This document shows positions 6,002 through 42,643 of a stretch of DNA of 64,000 bases, one piece after another (the first letter of the stretch is position 1; each line of letters opens with the position of its first letter). Made by a program: the position numbers and the translations under genes. The DNA is taken from assembly GCA_964417635.1 (NCBI GenBank), contig CAYQIY010000011.1:33741-97740 (forward strand), written 5' to 3'. This DNA is from an uncultured Pseudomonadota bacterium (GTDB taxonomy: Bacteria > Bacillota > Sulfobacillia > JAUYEF01). The notes under the pieces are model-generated. The model was not told the origin of the DNA, searched no databases, and worked only from the letters and a program-made list of their open reading frames with translations.

Positions 6002-6087
6002 GTAGACACGTTCTGAGACGCTATCTGAACGAATACTCTTGCTATAAGAGCAGGCATTACGTCTGTTAGAGCCTAGGGGTGGCCCCG

Positions 6088-7706: not shown

Positions 7707-7726
7707 GACAATGCTGCTTATCAATG

Positions 7727-7754
7727 GCCCGGCGCTACCGGGCTTTCTTCATTT
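7727..7754 (+). terminator. Putative terminator/attenuator between sigE and sigG
   Basis: GCCCGG-cgcta-CCGGGC hairpin followed by TTTCTTCATTT. Confidence 0.45.
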
Positions 7755-7869
7755 ACCCCTCTGTGCCGCGTATCTACCAGTAATTGGTACCACCTCGAAT
7801 TAATCCGCACTTTCGGGAGCATAATTATCTTCGCAGGTTAGTCCATTTGTTTCCCGGGGGTCAGCTGGT

Positions 7870-8637: not shown

Positions 8638-8650
8638 GGGGTTGAAAAGC

Positions 8651-20240: not shown

Positions 20241-20243
20241 CAG

Positions 20244-21539: not shown

Positions 21540-21635
21540 GCTCTTGACGAGAAGGCTCAATTAGGAATACACTACTGGGAAGAAAGCATATAGATACATA
21601 AGTATGTATAGATATGCAAGAGCCGGAGGTGTGTC

Positions 21636-22697: not shown

Positions 22698-22703
22698 CAG
22701 AGG

Positions 22704-25700: not shown

Positions 25701-25991
25701 ATCGTTGAGAGAATTGTCTCCGGAGAGATAACGCTTGTGGTCAACACTCTTACGGGTGGAGAGCGTCCTAGGACTGACGGATTCCGAATCAGGCGTGTGG
25801 CGGTAGAACACGGAATACCTTGCCTCACGAGTTTGGATACCGCACATGCGCTTTGCTCGGTGCTTTGTTCTGGTACTTCTCCCGAGTCCGTGAAAGTCTT
25901 GGCGCTTCAAGATCTGCACTTGGCTGAAGGGAGAGGACACGATGTGGCACAGAGTTGTAGCGGAGGTGCTGGACATCTTGCCGGTCGGTAA
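22704..25991 (+). CDS. carB: Carbamoyl-phosphate synthase large subunit
   Basis: 1095 aa; duplicated ATP-grasp halves and C-terminal MGS-like domain; 3' end overlaps pyrK start by ~50 nt. Confidence 0.95.
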   Translation: MPKRQDVKRVLLLGSGPIVIGQAAEFDYAGSQACLSLKEEGIQIVLVNSNPATIMTDPTMADRVYIEPLTLDIVEQVICKEKPDSLLPTLGGQVGLNLAKELHESGVLQRHGVRLLGTPIDAIRQAEDRQMFKDMLRSIDQPVPESVVVTNADDALRFATRHGYPVVVRPAYTLGGTGGGIAYTESELAEIVRRALKMSIIGQALIEKCVSGWKEIEYEVMRDSIGNCITVCNMENLDPMGIHTGDSVVVAPSQTISQDEYQMLRSASLKIISALGIEGGCNVQFALDPESSKYYVIEVNPRVSRSSALASKATGYPIARIAAKIAIGLNLDEITNPITQAGCACFEPALDYVVVKIPRWPFDKFSLGDRRLGTQMKATGEVMAIGRSFESALHKAVCCLEADNKGFYLPGLKERSVQQLLEQVACADDERLFVVAELLRRGVDTKQIRSVSCIDPWFLSRIKSIVLMEQQIAAARPDTGQPLADAQLEAVKRAKRMGFPDSSIASIWGVSEAQVRLLRKHKAHTSYRMVDTCAGEFSALTPYYYSVFGEADEAQQSAGSVIVVGSGPIRIGQGIEFDYSCVRAVQAFRKQGIRTVVINNNPETVSTDFSISDRLYFEPLAVEDVLEVVRKEAPLGIVLQFGGQTAINLARYLHEEGIPVLGTSPDTIDMAEDRQRFEELLAELGISRPAGGTAHSVERACEIACNVGYPVLVRPSYVLGGRAMQVVYNEAALKEYMLSAIKVSPEHPVLIDQYISGVEIEIDAVADGEDTLIPAIMEHVERAGVHSGDSIAFCPSKTLDSDIESEVVSYVSRIAKALSVRGLLNAQFVVRDKKVYVLEVNPRASRTVPFVSKVTGVPLVDIAVAVMCGNTLRSLGYTPGLMPRPTVTGVKVPVFSWAKLTLVDTSLGPEMKSTGEVMGVDTDPNTALYKALLAAGISLDRRGSVLLTVADRDKHECVSIARMLIEARYALVATPGTCAYLREHGLDVQQVPKLDKGDHIVERIVSGEITLVVNTLTGGERPRTDGFRIRRVAVEHGIPCLTSLDTAHALCSVLCSGTSPESVKVLALQDLHLAEGRGHDVAQSCSGGAGHLAGR

Positions 25992-26730
25992 GGATACCTA
26001 CCGGATGCGGCTTTCGGCACCTGAGTTAGTGCGTGACGCAAGAAGTGGCCAATTCGTAGAAGTGTTGTGTGGAGGAGTCTCGTTACCGTATCTCAGGCGA
26101 CCAATCAGCATCCACAGCCTGGACAAGCAGTGCGGTGTGCTGGGACTGCTTTTTCGTGTGGTCGGATCCGGCACAGAGTACATGGCTTCACTACGCGCAG
26201 GAGACAACGTCGACCTGTTAGGACCTCTTGGCAACGGGTGGCCGGATGTGTCAGCCAAGAACGTGCTGATGTTGGCGGGCGGAATAGGGATTGCGCCAAT
26301 GCCTGAAGCAGCTAAGACATACAAAGCTGCAGGCGCTGACGTAAGGTTCTTGTACGGTGCCAGATCCGAAGATGAACTAGTAGCGCTGGATGCGCTCGAG
26401 GATAGCGGGATACAGCCTGTGCTGGCCACTGACGATGGCTCTCGAGGGTACGAAGGGTTTGTCACCGATCTGCTCCCACAGCAGATTGAAGCGCTCGGCG
26501 ATGCTGTTGTAATGGCGTGTGGGCCAACTCCGATGCTGCGAGTGGCGCAGCGCATATGCCGCGATATGGGCGCTGTGTTATATGTGAGCCTGGAGCAGAA
26601 GATGGCGTGTGGCGTCGGAGCGTGTCTCGGTTGTGTGGTGGAGACTGTGCACCGGTCGCCTCGTTATGTGAAGGTGTGCGCCGACGGGCCTGTGTTCCGT
26701 GCGGATGAGGTGGTGATCGGTGATGTGTAA
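25942..26730 (+). CDS. pyrK: Dihydroorotate dehydrogenase electron-transfer subunit
   Basis: 262 aa; RRPISI FAD-binding motif and C-terminal MACGVGACLGC 2Fe-2S motif. Confidence 0.9.
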   Translation: MWHRVVAEVLDILPVGKDTYRMRLSAPELVRDARSGQFVEVLCGGVSLPYLRRPISIHSLDKQCGVLGLLFRVVGSGTEYMASLRAGDNVDLLGPLGNGWPDVSAKNVLMLAGGIGIAPMPEAAKTYKAAGADVRFLYGARSEDELVALDALEDSGIQPVLATDDGSRGYEGFVTDLLPQQIEALGDAVVMACGPTPMLRVAQRICRDMGAVLYVSLEQKMACGVGACLGCVVETVHRSPRYVKVCADGPVFRADEVVIGDV

Positions 26731-27637
26731 GATGGAAGTGAACCTGGCAGGACTCATACTGAAGAACCCGGTGATGACTGCATCCGGCACTTTTGGGTAC
26801 GGGCGTGAGTACGCGCATGTCGTGCCGCTTCGCGAACTCGGCGCGGTGGTTGTCAAAGGCACGACACTGCTTGCCCGTGACGGTAACCCACCGCCCCGCG
26901 TGGTTGAAACGCCTGCTGGGATGTTGAACGCTATCGGGCTTCAGAACGTGGGTGTAGATGCGTTCTTGCGCGATGAGCTGCCGTTTTTGAGAGACGCCGG
27001 AGCCACCGTGGTATTAAACCTCGCGGGCCACACCGTCAAGGACTACGAGGAGGCCACAGCGCGTGTGGATGGAGCACCGGGTTTGCATGCTATAGAAGTG
27101 AACATCTCGTGTCCGAACGTGTCTATGGGAGGCATGGCGTTCGGAGTTTCGCCTAAGAGCGCCTACGAGGTGGTCGCGGCTGTTAGAAAACGCACGGCGC
27201 TTCCTGTGATAGCAAAACTATCACCCAATGTGACAGACATAAAGCAGATAGCCACTGCGGTTGTTGAAGCGGGTGCGGACGCAGTGTCGCTCATCAATAC
27301 GCTTGTGGGTATGGCGATAGACGTCGATGCCAGACAGCCTGTGCTCAAGAATGTGACTGGAGGACTGTCGGGCCCTGCGGTAAGACCTGTGGCAGTGCGA
27401 ATGGTGTGGGATGTGTGCTCATGCGTTGACGTTCCGGTGGTAGGTATAGGTGGAATTAGCACTGCGCGCGATGCACTCGAGTTTATCATGGCGGGAGCGA
27501 GCGCTGTGCAGGTGGGCACAGCCATGTTCCGAGAGCCAACAGCACCGCTTGAGGTCATTAAGGGTATTGGCGAGTATCTAACGCAGAACTCACTGTGTCT
27601 TGAAGAAATAGTCGGGATAGCAAGGAGGAGTGCGTAG
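26720..27637 (+). CDS. pyrD: Dihydroorotate dehydrogenase catalytic subunit (class 1B)
   Basis: 305 aa; NPVMTASGTFGYG and TIM-barrel PyrD motifs; start may be Met5 (~26732). Confidence 0.95.
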   Translation: MMCKMEVNLAGLILKNPVMTASGTFGYGREYAHVVPLRELGAVVVKGTTLLARDGNPPPRVVETPAGMLNAIGLQNVGVDAFLRDELPFLRDAGATVVLNLAGHTVKDYEEATARVDGAPGLHAIEVNISCPNVSMGGMAFGVSPKSAYEVVAAVRKRTALPVIAKLSPNVTDIKQIATAVVEAGADAVSLINTLVGMAIDVDARQPVLKNVTGGLSGPAVRPVAVRMVWDVCSCVDVPVVGIGGISTARDALEFIMAGASAVQVGTAMFREPTAPLEVIKGIGEYLTQNSLCLEEIVGIARRSA

Positions 27638-27638
27638 A

Positions 27639-28364
27639 TTGAGCAAGAGAGACAGGATCATAGTCGCGCTCGACACCACCAATCTGAACGATGCTCGTGC
27701 TGTGGTCGAGAAACTTCAGGGCAGTGCCAGATGGTTTAAGGTAGGCATGGAGCTATTCTATTCAGCCGGCTGGCAGGCGGTCGAGATGGTGAGCGGCTCG
27801 GGGGCAAGCGTGTTCTTGGACCTTAAGTTCAACGATATCCCGAACACGGTGCAAGGAGCTTTCCGGTCTTGTCTTAGACCGGGGGTTGGGATGATCAACA
27901 TGCACACCACAGCCGGGCTTGAGGCGATGAAAAGTGCAATGCAGCAAGTGCAGCAGATCGAGGTCCATGCTAGGCCAATGGTGATCGGAGTTACGGTTCT
28001 CACGAGCCTTGACGAAGCCGCACTGAACGAGCAGTTAGGAATGCCCGGCAGTGTGATGCAAAATGTCACGCGACTGGCCGGTCTGGCGAAGCAGGCAGGG
28101 CTCTGCGGTGTGGTTGCGTCTCCACTCGAGACCCGCGCAATAAAGCAGGCGTGTGGGCAAGACATGATAGTTGTCACACCCGGCGTCAGGCCGGTGTGGT
28201 CGGGCACGCAGGACCAGAGGCGTTTTGCATCTCCGGCGCAGGCTTTTGCCGATGGAGCTGACTATATAGTGATCGGAAGACCTGTTACCGCCGCTGTCGA
28301 TCCTCTTAGCGCATATGAGCGGATCGCTGAAGAAGTAGAAGCACAACAGGGGGGAAGAGTGTGA
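27639..28364 (+). CDS. pyrF: Orotidine 5'-phosphate decarboxylase
   Basis: ORF 27630..28364; start moved to TTG (Leu4) after AAGGAGGAG; IIVALD and DLKFNDIPNT motifs. Confidence 0.9.
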   Translation: MSKRDRIIVALDTTNLNDARAVVEKLQGSARWFKVGMELFYSAGWQAVEMVSGSGASVFLDLKFNDIPNTVQGAFRSCLRPGVGMINMHTTAGLEAMKSAMQQVQQIEVHARPMVIGVTVLTSLDEAALNEQLGMPGSVMQNVTRLAGLAKQAGLCGVVASPLETRAIKQACGQDMIVVTPGVRPVWSGTQDQRRFASPAQAFADGADYIVIGRPVTAAVDPLSAYERIAEEVEAQQGGRV

Positions 28365-29149: not shown

Positions 29150-29713
29150 ATGGCGCAGGAACAGGATGCGCTTGCGATGAGGGTCAAGCGCTTCAGAGAG
29201 AACAACAACATGTCTGTGCGAGCGCTTGCCGCAAGAGTAGGAGTGACTCCCAGTTTTATCTATCAGCTGGAACAGGGCAAGGTTTCGGCTTCATATTCGA
29301 CTCTTAAGAGCATAGCCTCCGCTCTGCACACTTCTGTATCGGTGCTTGCCGGTGACGAAGTACCGACTGAGTGGTTCCTAGTCAAAAAGCACGACAGACG
29401 GAAATTGGTGCTCGACGGCACGGGGATGGCTTACGAACTGCTGAACTTCACGGGAGCGCGTGCTAAGCGAATGCATCCGCTGTTTTTCACGCTGGATGCA
29501 GGTGCTGAGGAGCGAGGTACTCTGTACGAGCACGAGAGAGAAGAGTTTGTGTTTCTAATTGAGGGACAGTTGGAGATCGTGATGGCAGGCAAGAAATACA
29601 CGCTTGAGGGCGGAGACGCGCTGTACTTCATGTTTGAGAGGCCTGAGGTCATCAGGAACACAGGAGAGAGCAAAGCCCAAGGCATTCTGGTGGTATCACC
29701 TCCGGGCGTATAG
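29150..29713 (+). CDS. XRE-family transcriptional regulator with C-terminal cupin domain
   Basis: ORF 29102..29713; start at Met17 after GGAAAGGGGGG; N-terminal HTH (MSVRALAARVGVTPSFIYQLEQGK), C-terminal cupin-like beta segment. Confidence 0.8.
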   Translation: MAQEQDALAMRVKRFRENNNMSVRALAARVGVTPSFIYQLEQGKVSASYSTLKSIASALHTSVSVLAGDEVPTEWFLVKKHDRRKLVLDGTGMAYELLNFTGARAKRMHPLFFTLDAGAEERGTLYEHEREEFVFLIEGQLEIVMAGKKYTLEGGDALYFMFERPEVIRNTGESKAQGILVVSPPGV

Positions 29714-29741
29714 CAGCACAGTGAATGAGAGGTGTGTTGTA

Positions 29742-32177
29742 GTGGACGAACTAGCGATCGACCGCAAATTCGAGAAAGTCAACGAGATTGTCGAAAAACA
29801 CAACCGCAAAGTCTCGAGTCTGGTCACCATTTTGCAGGAGGTACAGCAAGAGTACAGGTACCTTCCGCAGGAAGTGATGACCTATATAGCTACTGCACTC
29901 GGGATACCGCCTGCGATGGTTTACGGCGTGGCCACGTTCTATTCACAGTTCTCGACCGAACCTAAGGGAAAGTACGTCGTAAGAGTATGCGACGGTACAG
30001 CTTGTCACGTGAGAGGATCAGATCCGGTACACTTCGCGATACGCAGAGCGGCGGGACTCAGTGGAGACAGAGTCACAACCGATGACCTCATGTTCACGGT
30101 TGAGACAGTCGCATGCGTCGGAGCGTGTGGGCTTGCACCGGTGGTGATGGTGAACGACGATAGGGTCTACGGCCAAGTGTCACCTCAGGAAGCAGCCATA
30201 CTCATAGAAGAACTGAGGACGGACAATCCGCCAGCAACCCGTTCCGAACAAGCGGTCGAGACAACCAAGTCGGCTGCGCGCGTCTTTGAACGGCTGAGCA
30301 ACAGGCGTGCCTTGGACGCGCTTCGCCAGTCTGCTCTTGACGCAGTGAAGAACCAGAAGGCACGGATTTTGGTGTGTATGGAGACTGCGTGCTTGGCAAA
30401 CGGCGCACAGCAGGTATATGAGGCGTTTAAGCAGCAAGTCAAGGCTAAGCAGCTGGGCGCAGAAGTAGTAGAACTGCGCGAGCCGGCTACACCCGGGGAT
30501 GTTGCGCTGGTAAAAGCAGGTTGCCACGGCTACTGTCAGATAGGTCCGCTGGTCAAGATTATGCCGCAAGACGTGTTGTACGCTCATGTCGGGCCAGAAG
30601 ACGTAGACGAAATCCTTGAGAAGACGATCGTAAAAGGCGAGATTATCGAGAGGCTGCTGTACAAAGACGCTGCAACGGGCGACACTGCAGTGTCTGAAGA
30701 ACAGAACCCGTTCTACAAAGGCCAGCGCAAAGTGGCGCTTGCTTTGTGTGGCCTAATAGACTCAGAAGACATATACGAGTACGTAGCATTTGGGGGATAC
30801 CAGGCGTTTGCCAAAGCGATATTCGAGTTATCACCCGAACGCGTGATCGATGAGGTTATTGGGTCTGGGCTGAGAGGCCGCGGAGGCGGTGGATTCCCCA
30901 CAGGTAAGAAGTGGCATTTCGCCAGGCAGGCTAAATCGGACACCAAGTACGTTATCTGTAATGCAGACGAGGGTGACCCCGGTGCGTTCATGGATAGAAG
31001 CGTCATGGAAGGCGACCCGCATCGGTTGCTCGAGGGAATGATGATAGCTGGCTATTCGATCGGCGCGAACGAGGGTTACATCTATGTTCGAGCCGAGTAT
31101 CCGTTGGCGGTGAAGAGACTGCGTAAGGCGATTGCTGAGGCTACTGCGCTTGGTCTTCTTGGAGACAACATTTTGGGCAGCGGCTTCGGGTTTCGCATTA
31201 ATATCAAAGAGGGAGCTGGTGCTTTCGTCTGCGGCGAGGAGACGGCACTTCTGGCATCGATGATGGGCGAAAGAGGCATGCCGAAGCCCAAACCTCCTTT
31301 TCCATCTGACTCAGGCCTTCTTGGAAAACCGACGATCATTAACAATGTCGAGACGTTTGTTAACGTACCCTCGATAATATCTGCTGGCAAGGAATGGTTC
31401 AGGTCGATGGGAACCGAACGAAGCCCCGGTACGAAGACCTTCGCTCTGGCCGGGCAAGTGGCGCGCACCGGTCTTATCGAGGTGCCCATGGGGATGAGTT
31501 TGAGAGATGTGGTGTTCGGAATCGGTGGCGGAATGCGGAGACCTGGGTACGAGTTCAAAGCGGTGCAGATAGGCGGGCCATCAGGAGGCTGTCTGACAAA
31601 AGAGCATCTCGACCTGCCGCTGGATTTCGATTCTCTAACCAGCGTAGGCGCCATGATAGGCTCAGGTGGTCTTGTGGTGGTGGACAGCGGAACGTGTATG
31701 GTTGAGATGGCCAAGTTCTTCATGGCGTTCGTGCAGAACGAGAGCTGCGGCAAGTGTGTACCGTGCAGAGAGGGCACCAAGCAGATGCTAGCTCTGCTGA
31801 ACAAGATAACCGAAGGCAAGGGTACGCTTCAGGACATAGACACGCTGTGCCACCTTGCGGATATGGTTAAGACGAGCGCGCTATGCGGACTGGGCAAGAC
31901 TGCTCCAAATCCAGTGCTGACCACGCTTCAGTATTTCAAGGACGAGTACCTTGCGCACGTCGTCTCAAAGCATTGCCCCGCCGGCGTATGCAAACAGCTA
32001 CAGAAGTACTGTATTGACTTGGAGAAGTGTAAGGGCTGCGGCTTGTGCAAGAAAGTGTGTCCCGTGGGCGCTATATCAGGCGAGATAAAGGGGCCTCACA
32101 CAATCGATCAAGAGAAATGCATCAAATGCGGGGCTTGCGTGGAACGCTGCAAGTTCAACGCGATCATCGTGTCATAG
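29742..32177 (+). CDS. Fused NuoE-like/NuoF-like NADH-binding hydrogenase subunit (HydC-HydB fusion)
   Basis: ORF 29604..32177 trimmed to GTG after GAGAGGTG (upstream part overlaps regulator); N-terminal 2Fe-2S NuoE-like domain (CDGTACH..CVGACGLAP), ~45 aa linker, then 2Fe-2S thioredoxin-like domain, NuoF FMN/NAD module (GRGGGGFPTGKKW, ESCGKCVPCREG) and C-terminal 2x[4Fe-4S]; no stop between the E-like and F-like parts. Confidence 0.85.
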   Translation: MDELAIDRKFEKVNEIVEKHNRKVSSLVTILQEVQQEYRYLPQEVMTYIATALGIPPAMVYGVATFYSQFSTEPKGKYVVRVCDGTACHVRGSDPVHFAIRRAAGLSGDRVTTDDLMFTVETVACVGACGLAPVVMVNDDRVYGQVSPQEAAILIEELRTDNPPATRSEQAVETTKSAARVFERLSNRRALDALRQSALDAVKNQKARILVCMETACLANGAQQVYEAFKQQVKAKQLGAEVVELREPATPGDVALVKAGCHGYCQIGPLVKIMPQDVLYAHVGPEDVDEILEKTIVKGEIIERLLYKDAATGDTAVSEEQNPFYKGQRKVALALCGLIDSEDIYEYVAFGGYQAFAKAIFELSPERVIDEVIGSGLRGRGGGGFPTGKKWHFARQAKSDTKYVICNADEGDPGAFMDRSVMEGDPHRLLEGMMIAGYSIGANEGYIYVRAEYPLAVKRLRKAIAEATALGLLGDNILGSGFGFRINIKEGAGAFVCGEETALLASMMGERGMPKPKPPFPSDSGLLGKPTIINNVETFVNVPSIISAGKEWFRSMGTERSPGTKTFALAGQVARTGLIEVPMGMSLRDVVFGIGGGMRRPGYEFKAVQIGGPSGGCLTKEHLDLPLDFDSLTSVGAMIGSGGLVVVDSGTCMVEMAKFFMAFVQNESCGKCVPCREGTKQMLALLNKITEGKGTLQDIDTLCHLADMVKTSALCGLGKTAPNPVLTTLQYFKDEYLAHVVSKHCPAGVCKQLQKYCIDLEKCKGCGLCKKVCPVGAISGEIKGPHTIDQEKCIKCGACVERCKFNAIIVS

Positions 32178-32189
32178 GGGGCGATATTC

Positions 32190-34208
32190 ATGGCAGGGGC
32201 TCCGTCAGTCAAGATCAACGGACGAGCGTGCAAGATAGACGGCGAAACCAACATACTCGAGTTGGCCAGAAAGCAAGGTATAGACATTCCATCGTTCTGT
32301 TACCACTCAGAATTGAGTGTGTACGGGGCGTGCAGAATGTGCCTGGTCGACGTTGAGGGAATGGGGCTTGTAGCAGCGTGCTCCACCGTGCCAAGAGATG
32401 GTATGGTCATCGAAACGATGACCGAAAAGGCACAAGCAGTGCGCAAGACGATACTCGAATTACTGCTTGCCAACCATGACAGAGAGTGTACGGCGTGCGA
32501 CAAAAACGGCTCGTGCAAGCTGCAAAAACTCGCATACCAGCTAGGCGTGGATAGAGTGCGCTTCGGTACGCCTGAACTCATGGCGCAAGTAGACCTAGAT
32601 GGACCTGCTATAGTGCGCAATCCCAACAGATGCATATTGTGCGGCGATTGCGTGAGAATGTGCCGCGAGATCCAGGGGATTGGCGTGCTGGACTTCACAC
32701 ACCGAGGCCCAAAGACGAGTGTGGAGCCCGCTTTCGGCAAGAAACTCACCGAAGTGGAGTGTGTCAACTGCGGTCAGTGCATAGCGGTGTGTCCGACCGG
32801 CGCGCTGACGGCAAAATCACAGGTTACCGGCGTGTGGGGTGCACTGCACGACGAGACTAAGACCGTCGTTGTGCAAATTGCGCCGGCCGTGCGTGTGGCT
32901 ATAGGCGAGGAGTTTGGACTGGGCGCGGGAGAGGTAGCAACAGGCAAGATTGCCGCGGCTATGAGGCTTATGGGGTTCGACTATGTGTTCGACACCACAT
33001 TCGCGGCAGATCTCACCTCGGTCGAAGAGACTCACGAATTCGTCCAAAGGCTTACGGCAGGTCAGAAACTGCCTCACCTTACGTCATGCTGTCCGGGCTG
33101 GGTGAAGTACTGTGAGCAGTTCTATCCTGGCATGCTCAAGAATCTGTCAACCTGCCGGTCGCCTCAGCAGATGTTTGGATCTATGGCAAAGCACTATTTT
33201 GCTTCCAGCATCAACAAGAAGGCTTCGGATCTGACTGTGGTGTCCGTGATGCCGTGCACTGCCAAGAAGTTCGAGGCAGAACGGCCAGAGTTCGCGGACA
33301 AAGACCAAAAAGATGTGGACTTCGTGCTCACAACCGTAGAACTAGCACGCATGATAAAAGAGTCCGGGATACTGTTTGACGAAATAGAGCCCGAGGCGAT
33401 GGATGTGCCTCTCGGACTGGGAACCGGAGCAGGCGTGATATACGGCGTCACCGGCGGCGTGGCTGAGGCGGTATTGCGCACAGCATACAGCATGTTAAGT
33501 GGCGGTAAGATCGACCATCTCGAGTACCAGGAAGTGCGCGGTATGGAGGGGGTCAAGACTGCCGAGATAGAAATCCTCGGAAACAAGGTCAAACTTGCCG
33601 TGGTGAGCGGCCTTGCCAACGCCAAGCGAGTGCTTGACGCCGTGAACGCCGGAGAGATGACATGCCACATCATAGAGGTCATGGCGTGTCCAGGCGGCTG
33701 CGTCGGAGGAGGCGGACAGCCGTACCCGAACGATACACGCGTCAGAGCACGTAGAGGGAAGGGGCTCTACACTCTCGACAGACAGATGCAGCTGAGACAT
33801 CCAACCGAGAACGTGTACGTCAAGATGCTGTACGATAAGTGGCTTGGTGAGCCAGGCAGTGAAGTGGCACATCGCGCACTGCACACGACCTACTATCCGA
33901 GACGCAGAATCAGTGGAGAAGTGATTGAAGGCATCATGAAGGCTCAGTGCGATGCGCCGGTGCGAGTGTCGGTCTGTGTGGGTACAGGTTGCTACACTCG
34001 CGGTTCGTACGAAGTGCTTGCGCGGATCCGCGAACTGGCAGAAGCATATGGGTTGGAGGGTTCTGTCGAAGTGACGGCGACGTTCTGTTTGGAGCGCTGT
34101 TCTGAGGGCGTGAGCGTAAGAGTTGGAGATCAGATCGTAACCGGAATAAATCCCGACAATGTCGAAGAACTGTTCAAGCACAAAGTGCTTGCGCAGGTCT
34201 CCAACTAA
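32190..34208 (+). CDS. hydA: [FeFe]-hydrogenase catalytic subunit HydA
   Basis: H-cluster motifs L1 TSCCPGW, L2 MPCTAKKFE, L3 EVMACPGGCVGGGGQP; N-terminal 2Fe-2S + [4Fe-4S] domains; extra C-terminal thioredoxin-like 2Fe-2S domain. Confidence 0.92.
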   Translation: MAGAPSVKINGRACKIDGETNILELARKQGIDIPSFCYHSELSVYGACRMCLVDVEGMGLVAACSTVPRDGMVIETMTEKAQAVRKTILELLLANHDRECTACDKNGSCKLQKLAYQLGVDRVRFGTPELMAQVDLDGPAIVRNPNRCILCGDCVRMCREIQGIGVLDFTHRGPKTSVEPAFGKKLTEVECVNCGQCIAVCPTGALTAKSQVTGVWGALHDETKTVVVQIAPAVRVAIGEEFGLGAGEVATGKIAAAMRLMGFDYVFDTTFAADLTSVEETHEFVQRLTAGQKLPHLTSCCPGWVKYCEQFYPGMLKNLSTCRSPQQMFGSMAKHYFASSINKKASDLTVVSVMPCTAKKFEAERPEFADKDQKDVDFVLTTVELARMIKESGILFDEIEPEAMDVPLGLGTGAGVIYGVTGGVAEAVLRTAYSMLSGGKIDHLEYQEVRGMEGVKTAEIEILGNKVKLAVVSGLANAKRVLDAVNAGEMTCHIIEVMACPGGCVGGGGQPYPNDTRVRARRGKGLYTLDRQMQLRHPTENVYVKMLYDKWLGEPGSEVAHRALHTTYYPRRRISGEVIEGIMKAQCDAPVRVSVCVGTGCYTRGSYEVLARIRELAEAYGLEGSVEVTATFCLERCSEGVSVRVGDQIVTGINPDNVEELFKHKVLAQVSN

Positions 34209-34250
34209 TGGAGAACGGTCGACTAACGGATATTCCGAAAGGAGTCGACA

Positions 34251-34502
34251 GTGTTGATTACCGTCCAGGTTTGCATGGGGAGCTCCTGCTATATAAGGGG
34301 TTCGGCCAAGGTGGTTGAGACGTTAAGAAGACTGATAGAGCGAAATGGTCTTCTGAACAAAGTCGTGCTGAAAGGCAGCTTCTGCATGGAGCGCTGCACG
34401 CACGGAGTCACAATCAAAATAGATGACAGCCTTTTTACAGGTGTTCACCCAGAGGACATTGAACAGCTGTTCAGTCGCGAAGTGCTCGCACGCATTTCGT
34501 GA
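34251..34502 (+). CDS. Small thioredoxin-like [2Fe-2S] ferredoxin (NuoE-like fold)
   Basis: 83 aa, four Cys (CMGSSC...CMERC); paralogous to the C-terminal domain of HydA; GTG start after AAAGGAG. Confidence 0.7.
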   Translation: MLITVQVCMGSSCYIRGSAKVVETLRRLIERNGLLNKVVLKGSFCMERCTHGVTIKIDDSLFTGVHPEDIEQLFSREVLARIS

Positions 34503-36265
34503 CCCGAATAGAGGAGGTGGCGGCTCTCGTGGGGATCATCTCGACGATAGAAGCTAGGTGCAAGGATTGCTACAAGTGCCTAAGGGCATGTCCGGTCAAG
34601 GCGATAAAATTTGTGCCGGGAGATGCATCGGGTGAATTGCACGCTCGCGTGGTCGACGATATGTGTGTGCTTTGTGGTACGTGTGTAAAAGAGTGCCCTC
34701 AAAACGCCAAGAAGGTTCGTGAAGACCTGGACGTTGTCAAGCACATGCTTGAGTCAAAGCGACCGGGCGTGCCCATCGGCGTTAGCATTGCACCGTCGTT
34801 TGTGTCGGGTATGATGCTTGAAGAGCCGCTCGGCATAGTGAGCGCACTCAAGCGACTGGGGTTCGATGTGGTAGAGGAAACCGCGATAGGTGCTGCGCTT
34901 GTGGCTAAGTTTCACTCAGAATACGAACCGGACTCACAGCCTAAAGTCATAGGTACTGCGTGTCCGGTAGTGGTGAACCTCGTAGAGAAGTACTATCCGG
35001 ACGCAATAAGCAGCATGACACCTGTCGTTTCTCCCATGATAGCGCATGCTCGCGACCTTCGCGCGCGCCACCCTGGGATTCAGGTTGTGTTCATCGGGCC
35101 TTGCTTTGCCAAGAAGAGTGAGGCAGAGGAAGCTTACGGCAGTTCTGAGGTGGCGGCGGTGTTGACGTTCGCCGAACTGGCGAAGTGGTTCGAAGAAGAG
35201 GGCATAGACCTCGAGCAGATGCAGCCAGCAGAATTCGAAGGGCCGAATCCAGGCACCGCACGCTTTTTCCCGCTAGAGGGCGGCCTGCCTCATACAGCTT
35301 CGATGGAAACCGGAGTAGGCGCAAAAACTACTCTCGCTGTATCAGGTATCGAAGAGTGCATGGATTTCCTTAAGATGGCGCAGGAAGACAACCCCCTGAT
35401 AAAAGACATCGCAGTGGCTGATCTTCTAGCATGCAGAGGCGGCTGCATAAACGGCCCGGGCATCGCGACTACTGCAGACCAGTTCACGCGAAGAGCACAC
35501 CTTGTGCAGTATGCTGCAGCGAAAAAGCGCTTGACGTGCGAGGTAGATGAACCCAGCGCCGAAGATATCGATCTCTCGCGCGCATTCTGCTCCAAACAGC
35601 CCAAACTGCGTCAGCCTACAGAACAAGAAATACGGCAGATTCTCGAGCGTACTGGCAAGATGACAGAGGCTGACGAACTGAACTGCGGTTCATGCGGATA
35701 CAGTTCGTGTAGGGCAAAAGCCATAGCGGTGTACCAAGGACTGGCTGAGATAGAGATGTGCCTTCCGTACATGCGCTCAAAGGCAGAGTCGCTCTCGAAC
35801 TCGGTTGTGGAGCATGCACCAGACGGCATCGTAGTCGTTGACAGTGCTTGCCGAATAGTCCAGGTAAACCGTTCGTTTGAACGGATGTTTGGGTCAGGTG
35901 CCAAGAACGTTTTGGGACAGCCACTTGCGAACATCATTGATTCTGAGAACTATGAGCGGGTTCTCAGTGAGCACAAGCCCATCATGGTGACATGTGCGTA
36001 TCCGAAATATGGAGTGGTGACGCTCCAGACCATATTCTATATGCCTGACCAGAGGCTCGCGGTCGGTATAATGGCCGACATCACCGAAGAAGAGAAGCGC
36101 AAAGAAGCCATGCTGAAACTCAAAGCCGCTACCATGACTCGGGCACAAGAGGTCATCAACAAGCAGATGAAGGTGGCGCAGGAAATAGCGAGCCTTCTGG
36201 GAGAGACTACCGCAGAGACCAAAGTGCTGCTTTCAAAAATCATTGAACTAAACCGCCAGGACTGA
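34499..36265 (+). CDS. hydS: Putative sensory [FeFe]-hydrogenase HydS (ferredoxin + degenerate H-cluster domain + PAS)
   Basis: N-terminal 2x[4Fe-4S] ferredoxin motifs; H-domain with altered motifs (TACPVV, GPCFAKK, LACRGGCINGPG); Cx2Cx4Cx16C motif (CGSCGYSSC...C) then PAS-like domain; start may be ~34529. Confidence 0.8.
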   Translation: MTRIEEVAALVGIISTIEARCKDCYKCLRACPVKAIKFVPGDASGELHARVVDDMCVLCGTCVKECPQNAKKVREDLDVVKHMLESKRPGVPIGVSIAPSFVSGMMLEEPLGIVSALKRLGFDVVEETAIGAALVAKFHSEYEPDSQPKVIGTACPVVVNLVEKYYPDAISSMTPVVSPMIAHARDLRARHPGIQVVFIGPCFAKKSEAEEAYGSSEVAAVLTFAELAKWFEEEGIDLEQMQPAEFEGPNPGTARFFPLEGGLPHTASMETGVGAKTTLAVSGIEECMDFLKMAQEDNPLIKDIAVADLLACRGGCINGPGIATTADQFTRRAHLVQYAAAKKRLTCEVDEPSAEDIDLSRAFCSKQPKLRQPTEQEIRQILERTGKMTEADELNCGSCGYSSCRAKAIAVYQGLAEIEMCLPYMRSKAESLSNSVVEHAPDGIVVVDSACRIVQVNRSFERMFGSGAKNVLGQPLANIIDSENYERVLSEHKPIMVTCAYPKYGVVTLQTIFYMPDQRLAVGIMADITEEEKRKEAMLKLKAATMTRAQEVINKQMKVAQEIASLLGETTAETKVLLSKIIELNRQD

Positions 36266-36272
36266 GGCCGAT

Positions 36273-37424
36273 ATGCAGCTTTTCTATGAAGTGGGATACT
36301 CGCAGCTCAACAAGAACAACGAAGAACTGTGTGGCGATAGCGTCGAAGTAACTCGCACTCGCCGCTCAACGATCGTCACGGTGTCTGACGGGCTGGGTAG
36401 CGGCGTCAAGGCTAACATTCTGTCGTCTCTGACCACCAAGATGGCAGCCACCATGCTGAAAAAAGGTTCAGCTGTGGACGAAGTGATCGAGACGCTGGTG
36501 GGTACGCTGCCCACATGTAAGGTCAGAAAGCTGGCCTACAGCACTTTCACCGTGGCAAAGTTGGATACTGACGGCAGCATCTACATAGCCGAATACGATA
36601 ACCCTCCGGTGATGTCGGGCTCAGCGCAGGCTCAGCTGGACGTAAGGTTTTGTGAGCGGGAAGTCGGCGAAAAGACGATTCGCGAGGCTCGGTTTCGGGC
36701 GAAGCCAGGAGACTGGCTCGTGATAGTGAGCGACGGCGTACTGCACGCCGGTATAGGAGGAGTCTGGAACCTCGGGTGGGGTTGGGACAGAGTATCCAGC
36801 TACGTGAGCCGACTCGCGGCGAGTGGTCTTAGCGCAGACGAACTGGCAGCAGATGTCACGTCTTTGTGCAACAGGCTCTACGGAGCAATGCCCGGGGATG
36901 ATGCCACTTGCGTGGCGATTAGAGTCAGGGAGCCGCGGCATCTCGCACTGATGGTAGGCCCACCGGCAGACCCAAAAGACGACGAGATTGCCGTGCAGCG
37001 CCTGCTCGAGTGCCCAGGCAGGAAGGTGGTCGCCGGTGGCACAACCGGGAACCTGGTAGCCCGTGCGCTAGGCAAGCCCATAACAGTCGACCTTGGTTCG
37101 TGTTACGAGGACGTGCCTCCGACAGGTGTTATCGAGGGCATCGATCTTGTGACCGAAGGTATGCTCACGCTTGTAAAGACGCTTGAACACCTGAGGAAGA
37201 ATACATCTCTGTCCCGGTTTGAAGGTAGAAGAGACGGTGCAAGCAGGCTGGCTCGCGCTTTGCTTGAAGCCGACAAGGTGCACGTAATAGTAGGACGCGC
37301 CATAAATCCGGCTCATCAGAGTCGTGATGTGCCTGCGGCACTTGCGCTAAAGAGCCAACTCATAGACGACATAATACGCGAACTACGAAAGAGGCAGAAG
37401 CGGGTGAGCGTTGAGTATCACTGA
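36273..37424 (+). CDS. SpoIIE/PP2C-family serine phosphatase with C-terminal uncharacterised domain
   Basis: 383 aa; PP2C-like N-terminal half (GDSVEV..VSDGLGSG..., VSDGVLHAG, DDATCVAI); follows hydS with 7-nt gap. Confidence 0.75.
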   Translation: MQLFYEVGYSQLNKNNEELCGDSVEVTRTRRSTIVTVSDGLGSGVKANILSSLTTKMAATMLKKGSAVDEVIETLVGTLPTCKVRKLAYSTFTVAKLDTDGSIYIAEYDNPPVMSGSAQAQLDVRFCEREVGEKTIREARFRAKPGDWLVIVSDGVLHAGIGGVWNLGWGWDRVSSYVSRLAASGLSADELAADVTSLCNRLYGAMPGDDATCVAIRVREPRHLALMVGPPADPKDDEIAVQRLLECPGRKVVAGGTTGNLVARALGKPITVDLGSCYEDVPPTGVIEGIDLVTEGMLTLVKTLEHLRKNTSLSRFEGRRDGASRLARALLEADKVHVIVGRAINPAHQSRDVPAALALKSQLIDDIIRELRKRQKRVSVEYH

Positions 37425-39289: not shown

Positions 39290-40168
39290 ATGAGGTTTAC
39301 CAAGATGGAAGGTGCGGGAAACGACTATATCTACGTCAACTGTTTTGCAGAAGGAGTAGAACACGACTGGCCGGAGCTTGCAAGGCAGATCAGCGACAGG
39401 CACTACGGAGTCGGTTCCGACGGACTCATACTTGTCATGCCTTCTGCTTGCGCCGATTTCAGGATGCGCATGTACAACCGCGATGGTTCAGAAGGCGACA
39501 TGTGTGGTAATGGGATACGCTGCTTTGCAAGGTATGTGTACGACCACAGGCTCACAACTAATACGCAACTGTGTATCGAGACCAGAGCTGGCATCATGCG
39601 TTCGAGACTTGTCCTTGACGGGGACAAGGTGCACTCAGTCGAGGTTAACATGGGCAAGCCCGGGCTCAGGCCGGAAGATATACCCATGCGGGTGCCTGAT
39701 GGCTGGATGAGCGCGCAGAACGTTCCGGTATGCGTCGGAGCCACTACCTACAGTGTAACAGGAGTGAAAATGGGCAACCCCAATGGTGTTGTGTTTGTGC
39801 ACAACCTTGAAGATATCGATGTAGCCCGCGACGGGCGTCTGCTTGAACTGAGTCCGGTATTTACCGAAGGTGCGAACATAGAGTTTGTCCAGGTTCTAGC
39901 GCCCGAGCTCATCAAGATGAAGGTGTGGGAGAGAGGCTCCGGAGAGACTCTCTCCTGCGGAACCGGAGCGTGTGCTGCGTTGGTCGCGGCAGCTAACTCA
40001 GGTAGCACCCGTAGAGCGGCCGAGGTGCTGTTACCAGGCGGGCGGCTGTACATTGAGTGGAGACAAGACGGTGACGTGATGATGACCGGTCCTGCCAACG
40101 AAGTGTGTTCTGGTGTATTCACCAGGTGGACTCGGCAGCACGACTACGTGGTTACGTCAGTCGGGTAG
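39290..40168 (+). CDS. dapF: Diaminopimelate epimerase
   Basis: 292 aa; MRFTKMEGAGNDYIYV, catalytic CGNG and C-terminal SCGTGACA Cys motifs. Confidence 0.95.
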   Translation: MRFTKMEGAGNDYIYVNCFAEGVEHDWPELARQISDRHYGVGSDGLILVMPSACADFRMRMYNRDGSEGDMCGNGIRCFARYVYDHRLTTNTQLCIETRAGIMRSRLVLDGDKVHSVEVNMGKPGLRPEDIPMRVPDGWMSAQNVPVCVGATTYSVTGVKMGNPNGVVFVHNLEDIDVARDGRLLELSPVFTEGANIEFVQVLAPELIKMKVWERGSGETLSCGTGACAALVAAANSGSTRRAAEVLLPGGRLYIEWRQDGDVMMTGPANEVCSGVFTRWTRQHDYVVTSVG

Positions 40169-41438
40169 AGAATATGTCATCTAGTCCTGCTTGTTTGACA
40201 CGAGTCTTGGCGGCAAGAGAATCAGGCGTGTAAAGCGATTTGCTCTTCATGTGCTCGAAGAATACAGAGCCGGCAAAGGTGTAAGATTGCTGCAGACCTT
40301 CAGCAGACTTCATCTTTTCGTTCGTGTATGCGATGAATTCGCCAATAGCCGTTGAACGTGACAGGCCGACAAGCGGCATTGCCAGTGCTTTTCGTACTGC
40401 GTTGTGTCCCGCAAGTGTACCGGTTACAATTGCCTCGGTGTGTCCGATCAGCGTACCAGCTTTTTCTCCGGCACAAAGCAGGTTATCCATACCTTCGACT
40501 TGAAGGAACTGGTCTCTCGGCGCAAGCGCGAGAAACCTGACTGAATTTCCGCGACCTCCTGAATAAGGGTCGGCATAGCGTGCCCGTTGGAACCCCGATA
40601 TACTGCGCAGCGAGTCAAGTGGTAGAAAAGGAGTCATGAGTTTGGCGTGGCCCGTATCTAACAGCACGAGATGCTCGGCGTACTCAGATAGTGCGTACTG
40701 CTGGCATGCCTTTATTGAGAGCTTCGCAGAACTGATTAGCGAAGCCGGTAGAGGCGCCACAAACATGCCTGTTCGGTTAAGGGCACCCACGACAGAGCGC
40801 GCCAGGGACTCTTTCGCGATCTTGCAGCTGCCGCTCATTGCGCCAAATACGCCGGGCGTCTTAGTGGCCTGTGATTCGTGTACACCCGCTTTCGCGGCAA
40901 TGCTCACACGAGGGCCGTAAGTCGGACAGCGCTGTACGCACATAGCGCAGCCGTTTCCGAACCTGCTACAGTTTCCCATTGGACCCGATGTGCCTGTCGC
41001 GTCCACAAACACATCTGCCGAGAATTCGTTTGTATGCTCGTCTATGACTGATTTGATCAGCCTGGGACCGGATTTGTGCACGTCCACAACGCGGCACTCC
41101 AGATGCACGCTGACGCCGCGCGAGCCGAGCAACGAACGCACAGCAGGTTCCACTCGATGCACGTCGTACAGCGTTGCATGCAGGTGTCCTGGGAAATCCA
41201 CATCCTTGTGCCGGGCGTGTCTGTCGGTGAGCTTGAACAGATCTCCGCCTCCCATGGCAATTGCTTCTTCGGCCGCTGTGTACCTGCCGTTATTGCGCAT
41301 AATTCCGCCAACAAGTCCTGCTCCGAGAAGCATATCTGTCCTTTCCAGTAAGCTGACTTGCGCACCAGCGCGCTTTGCAGCTATTGCAGCCGCAACCCCC
41401 GACCAGCCGCCTCCGATTACTATTATCTTGGGTTTCAT
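40152..41438 (-). CDS. FAD-dependent oxidoreductase with Cys-cluster insert (GidA/TrmFO-like fold), function unknown
   Basis: 428 aa; N-terminal Rossmann IIVIGGGWSGVAAAIAAKRAG; internal CSRFGNGCAMCVQRCP motif; C-terminal ..CAGEKAGTLIGHTEAIVTGTLAGHNA..TAIGEFIAYTNE resembling TrmFO/GidA C-termini. Confidence 0.55.
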   Translation of the reverse strand: MKPKIIVIGGGWSGVAAAIAAKRAGAQVSLLERTDMLLGAGLVGGIMRNNGRYTAAEEAIAMGGGDLFKLTDRHARHKDVDFPGHLHATLYDVHRVEPAVRSLLGSRGVSVHLECRVVDVHKSGPRLIKSVIDEHTNEFSADVFVDATGTSGPMGNCSRFGNGCAMCVQRCPTYGPRVSIAAKAGVHESQATKTPGVFGAMSGSCKIAKESLARSVVGALNRTGMFVAPLPASLISSAKLSIKACQQYALSEYAEHLVLLDTGHAKLMTPFLPLDSLRSISGFQRARYADPYSGGRGNSVRFLALAPRDQFLQVEGMDNLLCAGEKAGTLIGHTEAIVTGTLAGHNAVRKALAMPLVGLSRSTAIGEFIAYTNEKMKSAEGLQQSYTFAGSVFFEHMKSKSLYTPDSLAAKTRVKQAGLDDIFSTRLT

Positions 41439-41462
41439 AGCGCAGTACCTCCGTACGGACGT

Positions 41463-42416
41463 TTAGAACCTCAGTATGTTGACGGGCGGCATAACTTTGC
41501 ACGCTCTGGCCGGAGCGGCGGCACCCGAGACCGTACAAGAACCACAAATGCCTTCCCCGCAGCACATCAGCGCATTATTCGTATATGCCGTTCTCGATCT
41601 CGGCGCTATCTCATTCGCAAGCGTCTGTAGCATCCGGTGCTGAATGTCTGGACCTGCGCTTATGATAAGGTCGCTCGCGGTGCTACGGATCAGCGTACGG
41701 ATGTCACCTGAATTGTGGTCATCAGTCTTGTCGAGCATCACAATTCTGGCATCACCGTCTGACAACCAGCGTCTCGCGAATACAGCGTCTGAACTGCCTT
41801 GCCCGACCGCCAGCGTGACCGGCGTCTTGCGGTCTGCAAAATACCGAGTGATGTGCGCTGCGCATCCCTGAGCCACCCCCTTTGCAACGATCAGCACGTG
41901 TTTTGCCGGTTGTTTTAAGTTGTTTAGGCCCAGGATTCCACCAAAATACGCGCCCCGAACCGCGAAACTAGTACAAGAGTCCAAGGAGAGCGCACGGCTC
42001 TTGGGGCCGACAACCTGAACGGCAAAATCGACTGTGCTGTCGGACGCGCTTACCTGAGCTGGCGAGAGCGGCACGTCAAAATGGGTGGGGTGGTCGTGCG
42101 GCCTGACAAACACAAAGCTGCCCGGAGGGCTAAGCCTTGCCGAGAACCAGGTAGGCATTTTGATCTTGATGATGAAAGTGTTCGAAGAAACGTGATTTCT
42201 TAGCACCAATTCAGAGCGTACACTCTGTCGCAAGTTTTCGGCTTTCTCAAGTCTCCATCTGAACTCTGCATGAGCACACGAGCCACACCACGCGCACTCG
42301 CAATGGTCGAACCCTGCAAGCAGTGAGCAGTTCACGCATTGTCCGAGTTCTGCCAGATAACACGGGCAGTACCAAGAGCCCGCGTCCACGCAAGGCAGAG
42401 AATGCCAGTCTCGCAT
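41463..42416 (-). CDS. PyrK-like FNR-type flavin reductase with N-terminal Cys-rich domain and C-terminal 2Fe-2S motif
   Basis: 317 aa; GAGGTG RBS 5 nt upstream of ATG; nine Cys in first 50 aa (CPCYLAELGQCVNC..CECAWCGSC); FNR-like body; MCCGEGICGSC like PyrK MACGxGxCGxC. Confidence 0.6.
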   Translation of the reverse strand: MRDWHSLPCVDAGSWYCPCYLAELGQCVNCSLLAGFDHCECAWCGSCAHAEFRWRLEKAENLRQSVRSELVLRNHVSSNTFIIKIKMPTWFSARLSPPGSFVFVRPHDHPTHFDVPLSPAQVSASDSTVDFAVQVVGPKSRALSLDSCTSFAVRGAYFGGILGLNNLKQPAKHVLIVAKGVAQGCAAHITRYFADRKTPVTLAVGQGSSDAVFARRWLSDGDARIVMLDKTDDHNSGDIRTLIRSTASDLIISAGPDIQHRMLQTLANEIAPRSRTAYTNNALMCCGEGICGSCTVSGAAAPARACKVMPPVNILRF

Positions 42417-42643
42417 GACAGCACCTCAAGTGTAGTGTCCGAGATAGCGTATGTGGCATCGCTCAAGGGTGTTACCTCGGGTGACGGTAATCGCTGTAAG
42501 CCAGAATTGAATGAGAGAACCTGCTAATTGGCATACTAAACCATCCATTTTTGGCAAAGTGGCGCGGCCTCAGAGGAATTCAGCGTTTTACCCAGAACCA
42601 GATAACGGTGGTTTTGTTGCGTCTTGCAGGGAGGATACCTCGA

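Follow-up and report, generated by a model that had tools for sequence, protein, structure and literature searches.

The A-B locus

The stretch of DNA analysed here (64,000 nucleotides of contig CAYQIY010000011.1, assembly GCA_964417635.1, referred to below as the window) carries on its minus strand two adjacent genes, A and B, whose products are predicted to be an electron-transfer protein and a flavoprotein. A preliminary description of this locus, made before any database search, had pointed to a 317-residue PyrK-like protein followed after 24 nucleotides by a 428-residue flavoprotein, and these sizes and the gap agree with the open reading frame (ORF) list and with the sequence itself. The two genes lie in the same frame, the 24 nucleotides between the stop of A and the ATG of B hold the ribosome-binding site of B, and no terminator-like site was found between them. 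On its other side gene B meets dapF, which is encoded on the plus strand; the 3' ends of these convergent genes overlap by 17 nucleotides (40152-40168), a terminator-like site was not found in this overlap, and the expression of B and dapF could be coupled through convergent transcription. The features of the locus are as follows:

42445..42475, minus strand: sigmaK-type promoter-like element GTAACA-N16-CATACGCTA, its 3' end 28 nucleotides upstream of the ATG of A
42422..42427, minus strand: ribosome-binding site of gene A, GAGGTG (sequence)
41463..42416, minus strand: gene A, 317 residues (ORF list)
42276..42392, minus strand: A residues 9-47, motif C-x7-CPC-x7-C-x2-C-x8-CxC-x5-C, eight invariant cysteines, no Pfam match
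41499..41564, minus strand: A residues 285-306, CCGEGICGSC...C, ligand set of the PyrK/NfnA [2Fe-2S] type, invariant cysteines
41465-41463, minus strand: stop codon TAA of gene A (sequence)
41448..41452, minus strand: ribosome-binding site of gene B, GGAGG, inside the 24-nucleotide A-B spacer (sequence)
40152..41438, minus strand: gene B, 428 residues (ORF list)
41438, minus strand: start codon ATG of gene B (sequence)
41397..41414, minus strand: B residues 9-14, GGGWSG, dinucleotide (flavin adenine dinucleotide, FAD) binding motif, aligned with GxGxxG of MnmG
40923..40970, minus strand: B residues 157-172, GNC-x6-C-x2-C-x3-CP, ferredoxin-like [4Fe-4S]-type motif in the insertion domain, invariant

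Protein A

Both cysteine-rich regions that had been singled out in A are present as described. The first 50 residues contain nine cysteines (positions 9, 17, 19, 27, 30, 39, 41, 44 and 47), eight of which are invariant in 23 of 23 homologues, at an overall identity of only 25-39%. The MCCGEGICGSC motif near the C-terminus is followed by C306, and the four cysteines C286, C291, C294 and C306, likewise invariant in 23/23 homologues, align with the cluster region of the NfnI small subunit (NfnI-S) and NfnA. The N-terminal eight-cysteine module is presumed to bind metal or iron-sulfur (Fe-S) clusters and may face either B or the electron donor.

No significant Pfam domain was detected in A. Residues 6-309 match positions 5-317 of the 330 in the NCBIfam model NF004470 (PRK05802) with an E-value of 6e-76, and the score of 255.5 bits lies under the curated cut-off of 313, so that by sequence A appears to be a divergent member or a sister of this family. 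The model bears the name 'sulfide/dihydroorotate dehydrogenase-like FAD/NAD-binding protein', and NCBI gives the homologues of A the same name, which is merely descriptive, the family having no attached function. The models of PyrK, AsrB and the GltD fusions score 20-50 bits on A against cut-offs of 220-1900 (best PyrK model 46.8 bits vs. 224; AsrB 22.8 bits vs. 288.6; GltD-fusion models about 40 bits with cut-offs above 1000). The closest matches of A in the PDB by phmmer are the small subunits of NfnI (5jca_S and 4ylf_A, E 4e-6). In the AlphaFold2 model the core (residues ~60-285) reaches a predicted local distance difference test (pLDDT) score above 90, while the N-terminal cysteine module is of low confidence, and the best Foldseek matches of the model are 4ylf_A (NfnA), 5jca_S and the PyrK chains 1ep1_B and 5ksw_B (E ~1e-11 to 1e-12). 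In this model A has the two-domain core of the NfnA/PyrK/FNR type.

Some of the motifs expected of such a core are altered. The flavin motif of NfnI, 'ERIPLT', aligns to 'FDVPLS' in A, with Pro and Ser kept and Arg lost; the nucleotide motif GGxGxxP is replaced by AKGVAQG in this copy, 'GGGVG' of NfnI being aligned to 'AKGVAQ', and a GGGIG motif is kept in some homologues. Homologues of A are confined almost wholly to Bacillota.

Protein B

The preliminary description had ascribed to B a TrmFO/GidA-like C-terminus. The likeness is real (Pfam GIDA, 5.9e-30, together with FAD_oxidored), but it is not a matter of the C-terminus, since it spans the whole FAD domain. Profile alignment with MnmG covers B residues 3-148 and 272-367, that is the FAD domain with the family signatures, and the GidA-type FAD domain fold of MnmG and TrmFO is present in B. 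The intervening middle part of about 120 residues is unique relative to MnmG, and it holds the CX6CX2CX3CP motif that had been noted before, here located as C157-x6-C164-x2-C167-x3-C171-P172. Its four cysteines are kept without exception in 20/20 homologues and almost without exception in a set of 83, P172 is also invariant, and the motif itself suggests that B carries a [4Fe-4S] cluster there; the loop 151-171 is of low confidence in the AlphaFold2 model. The conserved cysteine sets of A and B and the GidA likeness of B exceed by far what chance would give. Two further cysteines of the insertion domain, C205 and C245, are conserved, and their equivalence to the cysteines of TrmFO is only a lead. 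B has just one Cys4 motif, and no second dinucleotide motif besides GGGWSG.

The distance between B and the enzymes of this fold is considerable. Only generic GIDA/FAD models pass on B, and no specific NCBIfam model exceeds its cut-off: MnmG models give 30.1 bits (cut-off 524.85) and TrmFO models 30.5 (262) and 26.1 bits (428.65). In the profile alignment the motif cysteine of MnmG, the one in 'SCNPAIGG' which we take to be C47 in the Escherichia coli numbering, is matched by the invariant V43 of B. With its 428 residues B lacks the helical C-terminal domain by which MnmG, a protein of about 620-650 residues, binds MnmE, and alignments to MnmG chains stop at MnmG residue ~400-430. Judged by these comparisons, B belongs to a separate, putatively Fe-S-bearing branch of the GidA fold and is not an orthologue of MnmG or TrmFO.

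This branch is large and well delimited. More than 7376 homologues of 425-435 residues and 57-72% identity were found in Bacillota, Chloroflexota, Ignavibacteriales, Thermodesulfobacteriota and others, nearly all of them named just 'FAD-dependent oxidoreductase'. A profile search among 1.8 billion representatives returned only 198 clusters at E<=1e-30, hence the family is compact and sharply bounded. Its invariant stretches are GGGWxG, LLGxGLVGGIxRNNGR, FPGHxHAxLYD, GNCxxYGNGCxMCxxRCP, MSGSCK, KxCQQYAL, LLDTGHxKxM and GEKxGxxxGHTEA. A close solved structure was found neither for A nor for B, and a function is assigned to neither protein in the HMM (hidden Markov model) libraries, solved structures and literature that were searched. 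This bears out the earlier statement that the two genes cannot be given to a characterised enzyme, as no specific Pfam or NCBIfam model scores over its cut-off.

Conservation of the A-B pair

The genomic loci examined are the best 80 of at least 594 B loci, and many of them come from metagenome-assembled genomes. A homologue of A is present at 31/80 of these B loci, and all 29 copies that lie on the same strand are found directly upstream of B, with gaps from -41 to +98 nucleotides and many 4-nucleotide overlaps. A is also encoded upstream of B in the two cases nearest to the B of the window (72% and 66% identical); one of these pairs keeps the synteny of the window, and in the other, which is set among unrelated genes, A and B overlap by 4 nucleotides. 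Reverse look-ups that started from three distant homologues of A led to an adjacent B in 3/3 cases, once in the order B-A. No A-B fusion proteins were seen among the matches listed. The neighbourhood check proposed in the preliminary description therefore turned out in favour of the pair (29/29 same-strand copies of A upstream of B), and A-B is a real, conserved unit in which A is obligately linked to B. Identity among homologues is about 30% for A vs. about 60% for B, which means that A evolves much faster, as is typical of an accessory electron-transfer subunit. The earlier suggestion that the pair follows the 'electron-transfer subunit plus flavoenzyme' logic of PyrK-PyrD, Sud and Nfn fits the folds of both proteins.

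Two neighbourhoods of the pair may be recorded separately. At L084:4704-9056 the order is B-A-rluB-like, followed by a flavoprotein of the HI0933/RdsA family, with selU and rodZ upstream of the group; here A-B stands for a second time, and independently, beside a gene for an rRNA pseudouridine synthase. At L086:5391-9737, in one lineage, a 1448-residue protein with BcrAD_BadFG and DUF2229 domains is encoded downstream of A-B, a domain composition that we take to be that of the clostridial plasmalogen synthase PlsA.

A putative sporulation-type promoter upstream of A

The element at 42445..42475 is the sole strict match to its pattern in the window on both strands, where 0.42 would be expected. 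A conserved element of the form G(T/G)xAC(A/C)-N14-16-(C/A)ATAnnnTA recurs upstream of A in other genomes. The strict pattern at a fixed distance is present in 14/27 A-upstream regions, vs. 0.05 in shuffles and 1/50 of the regions that precede a B gene without A. With a relaxed -35 box (xxAC-N15-16-(C/A)ATAnnnTA) it is found at 25/32 A-B operons, compared with 1.8 (maximum 6) in shuffles and 4/50 of the A-less B controls. Elements of GC-rich relatives read GTAACA-N16-CATAGGCTA, GTCACG-N16-CATAGAGTA and GCACCA-N15-CATAGACTA.

Promoters of sigmaE and sigmaK have in common a CATA-type -10 box and are told apart by the -35 box, ATA in the case of sigmaE and AC in that of sigmaK (Saujet et al., PMC3789822). 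The element of the A-B operon was also considered as a site of an ECF (extracytoplasmic function) sigma factor, of sigmaA or of an operator, and these were rejected: a CATAnnnTA -10 box in GC-rich genomes fits mother-cell sigma factors, and the 'AC' of the -35 box fits sigmaK. The remaining details of the sigma consensus applied here are general background. We infer from the consensus match and from its conservation across species that the A-B operon would be sigmaK-dependent. The window itself encodes spoIIGA, sigE, sigG and spoIIR in a row after ftsA-ftsZ (6079-9283), thus implying that the source organism has a sporulation sigma cascade and is an endospore-forming (or recently sporogenous) member of Bacillota, with ~54% GC.

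AT-rich Clostridia show a second conserved block, (C/T)TAATAnTA(T/G)AG, after the -10 box of A-B and ~50-70 nucleotides upstream of A (L014, L018, L021, L040, L062, L064, L070 and L080). It could be a start-site region or the site of a regulator, possibly of the GerE/SpoIIID type.

Genomic contexts of B and the link to lysine

Clustering of the ORFs that neighbour B revealed three contexts, each specific to a clade. In a simple neighbour-joining tree, drawn without bootstrap, B is grouped by context, and the B of the window falls into the A-linked lineage. The first context is A-B itself, with the usual clostridial order scpA-scpB-ytfI/J-dacB-[A-B]-rluB and a pdaA-like gene also nearby. These neighbours, and the near-confinement of A homologues to Bacillota, count in favour of a tie to sporulation. 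In the second context (29 loci) B is followed by a 463-residue polytopic membrane protein with weak similarity to DctM, and sometimes a class I aminotransferase and D-2-hydroxyacid dehydrogenases are encoded upstream.

The third context (~25/80 loci, among them L001 (3490-12573), L006, L008, L013, L019, L023 and L039) is a cluster of DUF6917, RidA, a 488-residue pyridoxal phosphate (PLP) protein similar to SelA/DgaE, B, a GntR/FCD regulator and a 609-residue B12-binding protein, to which the 463-residue membrane protein and, sometimes, a ProC/F420-oxidoreductase-like reductase may be added. The B12 domain of the 609-residue protein is closest to the beta subunit of D-lysine 5,6-aminomutase and to D-ornithine aminomutase (OraE), and a KamB-like reactivase scores 241 bits vs. 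a cut-off of 210. The cluster looks like an unknown B12/PLP-dependent pathway for an amino acid similar to lysine or diaminopimelate. In three genomes it is directly followed by a second copy of B, arranged as A-B. In two other genomes (L007:7318-8475 and L069:8793-9659, both on the minus strand) it contains an A-like gene, antisense within the cluster and adjoining B, that has kept the eight-cysteine motif and the FNR-like core and has lost the C-terminal 2Fe-2S motif. The retention of the eight-cysteine module in these two genes suggests that cooperation with B depends on this module.

Over all contexts 117/428 positions of B are near-invariant and only nine mark the A-linked group, which implies that the chemistry, and probably also the class of substrate, is shared. 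The transporter and the amino-acid enzymes that neighbour B argue for a small-molecule substrate.

A further indication comes from regulation. Four lysine riboswitches were found directly upstream of B operons:

L024:925-1099: lysine riboswitch upstream of a B operon (Rfam)
L028:3675-3849: lysine riboswitch upstream of a B operon (Rfam)
L066:5712-5885: lysine riboswitch upstream of a B operon (Rfam)
L015:2671-2908: lysine riboswitch upstream of a B operon (Rfam)

Their scores are 62-108 bits with a gathering score of 30. The operons under their control consist of B with the 463-residue membrane protein, or of a NIF3-like protein, a Gate-domain membrane protein and B; the latter arrangement is that of L015, where a pdaA-like gene follows. 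At L028 the order leading up to B is sigmaA-like promoter, aptamer, then hairpin with T-run, by its sequence the layout of a classical lysine-OFF terminator switch. No riboswitch was detected in 21 loci with the B12 cluster, and the FMN (flavin mononucleotide), glycine and TPP (thiamine pyrophosphate) riboswitches at A-B and other loci belong to other genes. A survey of lysine-riboswitch regulons from 2017 makes no mention of these types of B and membrane-protein genes (PMC5584792). In the window it is dapF that abuts B. The sigmaK-type promoter and the lysine link of the family, both absent from the preliminary description, are the most informative facts about the pair.

Proposed function and its alternatives

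Quite probably, A-B is a heteromeric redox enzyme with a sporulation-type promoter. Our preferred reading is that it acts late in the mother cell on a small molecule of the lysine/diaminopimelate branch, possibly dihydrodipicolinate or dipicolinate, and we assign to this reading a probability of roughly 40%. The two genes would form a single operon, transcribed from the sigmaK-type promoter late in the sporulating mother cell. B would be the catalytic subunit, with FAD in the domain of the TrmFO/MnmG type and a putative [4Fe-4S] cluster on the Cys4 insert, and A its dedicated electron-transfer subunit in a physical complex, equipped with the FNR/PyrK-like core, the PyrK-type [2Fe-2S] site and the eight-cysteine metal module. 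A would connect the cluster and the flavin of B with a soluble carrier, for which NAD(P)(H) is the most likely choice and ferredoxin the alternative. The substrate would be a small molecule and not RNA; that it belongs to the lysine/diaminopimelate branch we hold to be slightly under even odds.

The more specific assignment to dihydrodipicolinate (DHDP) or dipicolinate is drawn from the sigmaK-type control, the lysine-OFF paralogues that stand with transporters, the lysine-aminomutase-like cluster, dapF and the PyrK-like partner, and it is a tentative one, better regarded as unlikely. In such a scheme A-B of the mother cell would dehydrogenate the DapA product (hydroxytetrahydrodipicolinate, HTPA, or DHDP) to dipicolinate, with the electrons leaving through A; the analogue is PyrK-PyrD, which aromatises dihydroorotate. 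The paralogues that lack A and are encoded with transporters under lysine riboswitches would use the same chemistry for salvage towards lysine, and in the paralogues of the B12-aminomutase-like cluster it would serve catabolism. Taken as a whole this is a speculative extension, in which the B family would be a dihydrodipicolinate/dipicolinate oxidoreductase, A-B an Fe-S-dependent dipicolinate synthase that has gone unrecognised in anaerobic spore formers, the A-less paralogues a route that salvages environmental dipicolinate to lysine, and the B12-cluster paralogues a part of anaerobic dipicolinate/diaminopimelate degradation; we consider it doubtful. It is noteworthy in this respect that cluster I clostridia lack dpaAB and nevertheless produce dipicolinate (PMC3533761; bioRxiv 10.1101/803486).

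Several observations weigh against the preferred reading. The riboswitches are found on B paralogues and not on A-B operons, and at just 4 of the ~36 loci from which both A and the B12 cluster are absent; no lysine riboswitch precedes A in 11 A-B loci, and none of any kind was detected in the window at E<=1. The sigma assignment stands on a consensus match and on cross-species conservation. The nearest structural relatives of B are RNA-modifying enzymes. Binding of FAD and NAD(P)H by A is plausible but uncertain, given the loss of the flavin-motif Arg and the degenerate GGxG motif. B is carried also by non-sporulating bacteria (Chloroflexota, Thermodesulfobacteriota, Ignavibacteriales), in which reduction of dipicolinate would need electrons of very low potential. 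Some A-B lineages may have dpaAB as well. Finally, EtfA is reported to be the dipicolinate-forming enzyme of Clostridium perfringens (cited in PMC3533761 and bioRxiv 10.1101/803486).

Among the alternatives, the one that survives best keeps the lysine link and changes the substrate. B might be an anaerobic, Fe-S-linked dehydrogenase for another lysine-related amine or amino acid, such as D-lysine, pipecolate, piperideine carboxylate, diaminopimelate or a lysine modified at N-epsilon, and its product might be an imine, a 2-oxo acid or released lysine. Amine dehydrogenases built as two-subunit Fe-S flavoproteins are an established type, the opine oxidases and the archaeal proline dehydrogenases being examples. 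The lysine riboswitches upstream of the B-transporter operons speak for this reading, and so do the neighbours RidA (an imine hydrolase), the ProC/F420-oxidoreductase-like reductase, the class I aminotransferase, the D-2-hydroxyacid dehydrogenase and the B12 protein similar to D-lysine/D-ornithine aminomutase subunits, with its KamB-like reactivase; the RidA, ProC-like, aminotransferase and aminomutase neighbours fit it equally well as they fit dipicolinate. However, this substrate leaves unexplained why the A-linked form has a late mother-cell promoter, and no similarity of B to D-amino-acid oxidase (DAO) or amine oxidases was detected beyond the dinucleotide-binding motif. On balance we regard it as unlikely.

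It is also conceivable that A-B has no organic substrate, and works as an Nfn-like NAD(P)H/ferredoxin oxidoreductase or transhydrogenase, or as an oxidoreductase that protects the spore or the mother cell from oxygen, peroxide or disulfide stress. The nearest solved relatives of A are the NfnA/NfnI small subunits, the predicted chain of flavin, 2Fe-2S, additional cysteine clusters, 4Fe-4S and FAD resembles that of bifurcating enzymes, and C205 and C245 of B could be a redox pair. Yet B is not similar to GltD/NfnB and does not have a second dinucleotide motif, and the linkage of its paralogues to a transporter, an aminotransferase and a riboswitch argues for a metabolite, which makes this possibility improbable.

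Another proposal follows from the fold of B, namely that it modifies uridine at C5/C6 in RNA like TrmFO/MnmG, with A regenerating the reduced flavin, and would be a candidate for a clostridial rRNA dihydrouridine/5-methyldihydrouridine synthase. C. sporogenes has m5D2449 and D2500 yet no RdsA, 'suggesting another unidentified type of Dus' (PMC11317573). In many Clostridia the neighbour of A-B is rluB, which encodes a pseudouridine synthase, and at an unrelated locus B-A-rluB is followed by the HI0933/RdsA-family flavoprotein. The adjacency to rluB and to an rRNA methylase gene was tried as evidence for an RNA function and rejected, as it is mostly inherited synteny: a B12-type cluster fills the same slot between dacB and rluB. 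Moreover, paralogues of B with 55-60% identity and the same 117 near-invariant residues occur in operons with transporters and aminotransferases and with lysine riboswitches, which weakens the idea of a modification system put forward in the preliminary description; Val stands at the position of MnmG Cys47, the MnmE-binding domain is absent, and the HMM scores are ~30 bits vs. cut-offs of 262-525. An RNA enzyme is therefore quite improbable.

The last candidate, a divergent copy of PyrK-PyrD, of glutamate synthase/Sud/Nfn or of AsrB with a partner, is suggested by the weak matches of A to the PyrK, AsrB and GltD-fusion models and can be dismissed as having a negligible chance: all scores lie far under the cut-offs (neither a glutamate synthase nor a sulfite reductase pair, the two identities considered at the outset, emerges from the AsrB and GltD-fusion models), B has the GidA fold and is not a PyrD TIM barrel, a GltD or a siroheme protein, and a genuine pyrK-pyrD pair resides elsewhere in the window, A itself not being PyrK. 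The two genes of this pair are:

25942-26730: genuine pyrK in the pyr operon (193.6 bits on NF000799, 172.5 bits on NF000798)
26720-27637: genuine pyrD in the pyr operon

Whatever the substrate of A-B, B stands for a family that numbers thousands of proteins, 55-70% identical over several phyla, and has neither a name nor a structure; the literature searched yielded no paper on it. It would add a third, Fe-S-containing branch to a fold known mainly from two types of tRNA/rRNA-modifying enzymes, and the pair a new type of partner to the electron-transfer subunits of PyrK/NfnA. The combination of A with B, the Fe-S insert, the eight-cysteine module and the regulatory links are new. The promoter of A-B and the riboswitches of its paralogues turn an 'unknown oxidoreductase' into a testable proposal on spore metabolism. 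If the dipicolinate reading were true, it would bear on how clostridia without dpaAB make the dipicolinate of their spores, the account that relies on EtfA only would have to be revised, and anaerobic dipicolinate turnover would be opened up to study.

Other loci in the window

The pyrK and pyrD genes named above are part of a complete pyrimidine operon (19317-28364) with pyrB, pyrC, carA, carB, pyrK, pyrD and following genes; the PyrK encoded there is the paralogue to which A bears its resemblance. A hydrogenase locus (29604-37424) encodes a fused NuoE/NuoF-like protein of 857 residues, a group A6 NADH-dependent [FeFe] hydrogenase (672 residues), an 83-residue ORF and a 588-residue hydrogenase-like protein with a PAS domain, in an arrangement of the sensory HydS type; a 383-residue ORF of the same locus has no NCBIfam match at E<=1e-10 and is PP2C-like by eye only. 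The 232-residue amino-acid racemase encoded at 13725-14423 scores over the cut-off of the NCBIfam model 'cysteate racemase CuyB' (263.6 vs. 190 bits).

Comparison with known systems

The dipicolinate synthase DpaAB (SpoVF) is a functional parallel to the proposed role of A-B. It is encoded by a two-gene, sigmaK-dependent mother-cell operon, consists of a nucleotide-binding subunit and a flavoprotein, and uses an intermediate made by DapA (PMC3789822; bioRxiv 10.1101/803486); dependence of dpaAB on sigmaK applies to both C. difficile and Bacillus subtilis (PMC3789822). The resemblance is functional only, through the sigmaK-type motif and the tie to lysine, whereas the folds differ and A-B has predicted Fe-S clusters. 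A DpaA or DpaB model did not appear among the NCBIfam matches listed for A or B (for B, the best 25 of 86).

TrmFO and MnmG, the relatives of B by fold, are just 17-21% identical to it. While the partner of MnmG is MnmE, that of B is a PyrK-like reductase, and while both are folate/FAD-dependent enzymes that act on the C5 of tRNA uridine, the contexts of the B family point to small-molecule metabolism.

With PyrK and NfnA protein A shares the FNR-like two-domain fold and the C-terminal four-cysteine [2Fe-2S] site. It differs from them by the additional invariant eight-cysteine module at the N-terminus, which has no Pfam match, by the loss of the Arg in the flavin motif and by the degenerate nucleotide motif. 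The partners differ as well, since PyrD is a TIM barrel and NfnB/SudA is GltD-like, whereas B has the GidA fold; the large subunit of NfnAB/SudAB, being of the GltD type, has two [4Fe-4S] clusters, FAD and an NADPH site, and B a single Cys4 motif. What PyrK-PyrD, NfnAB/SudAB and A-B have in common is the placement of an electron-transfer gene beside that of its flavoprotein partner, in the case of A directly upstream and often translationally coupled. In the known systems this subunit wires a catalytic flavoenzyme to pyridine nucleotide, and the same is likely for A-B.

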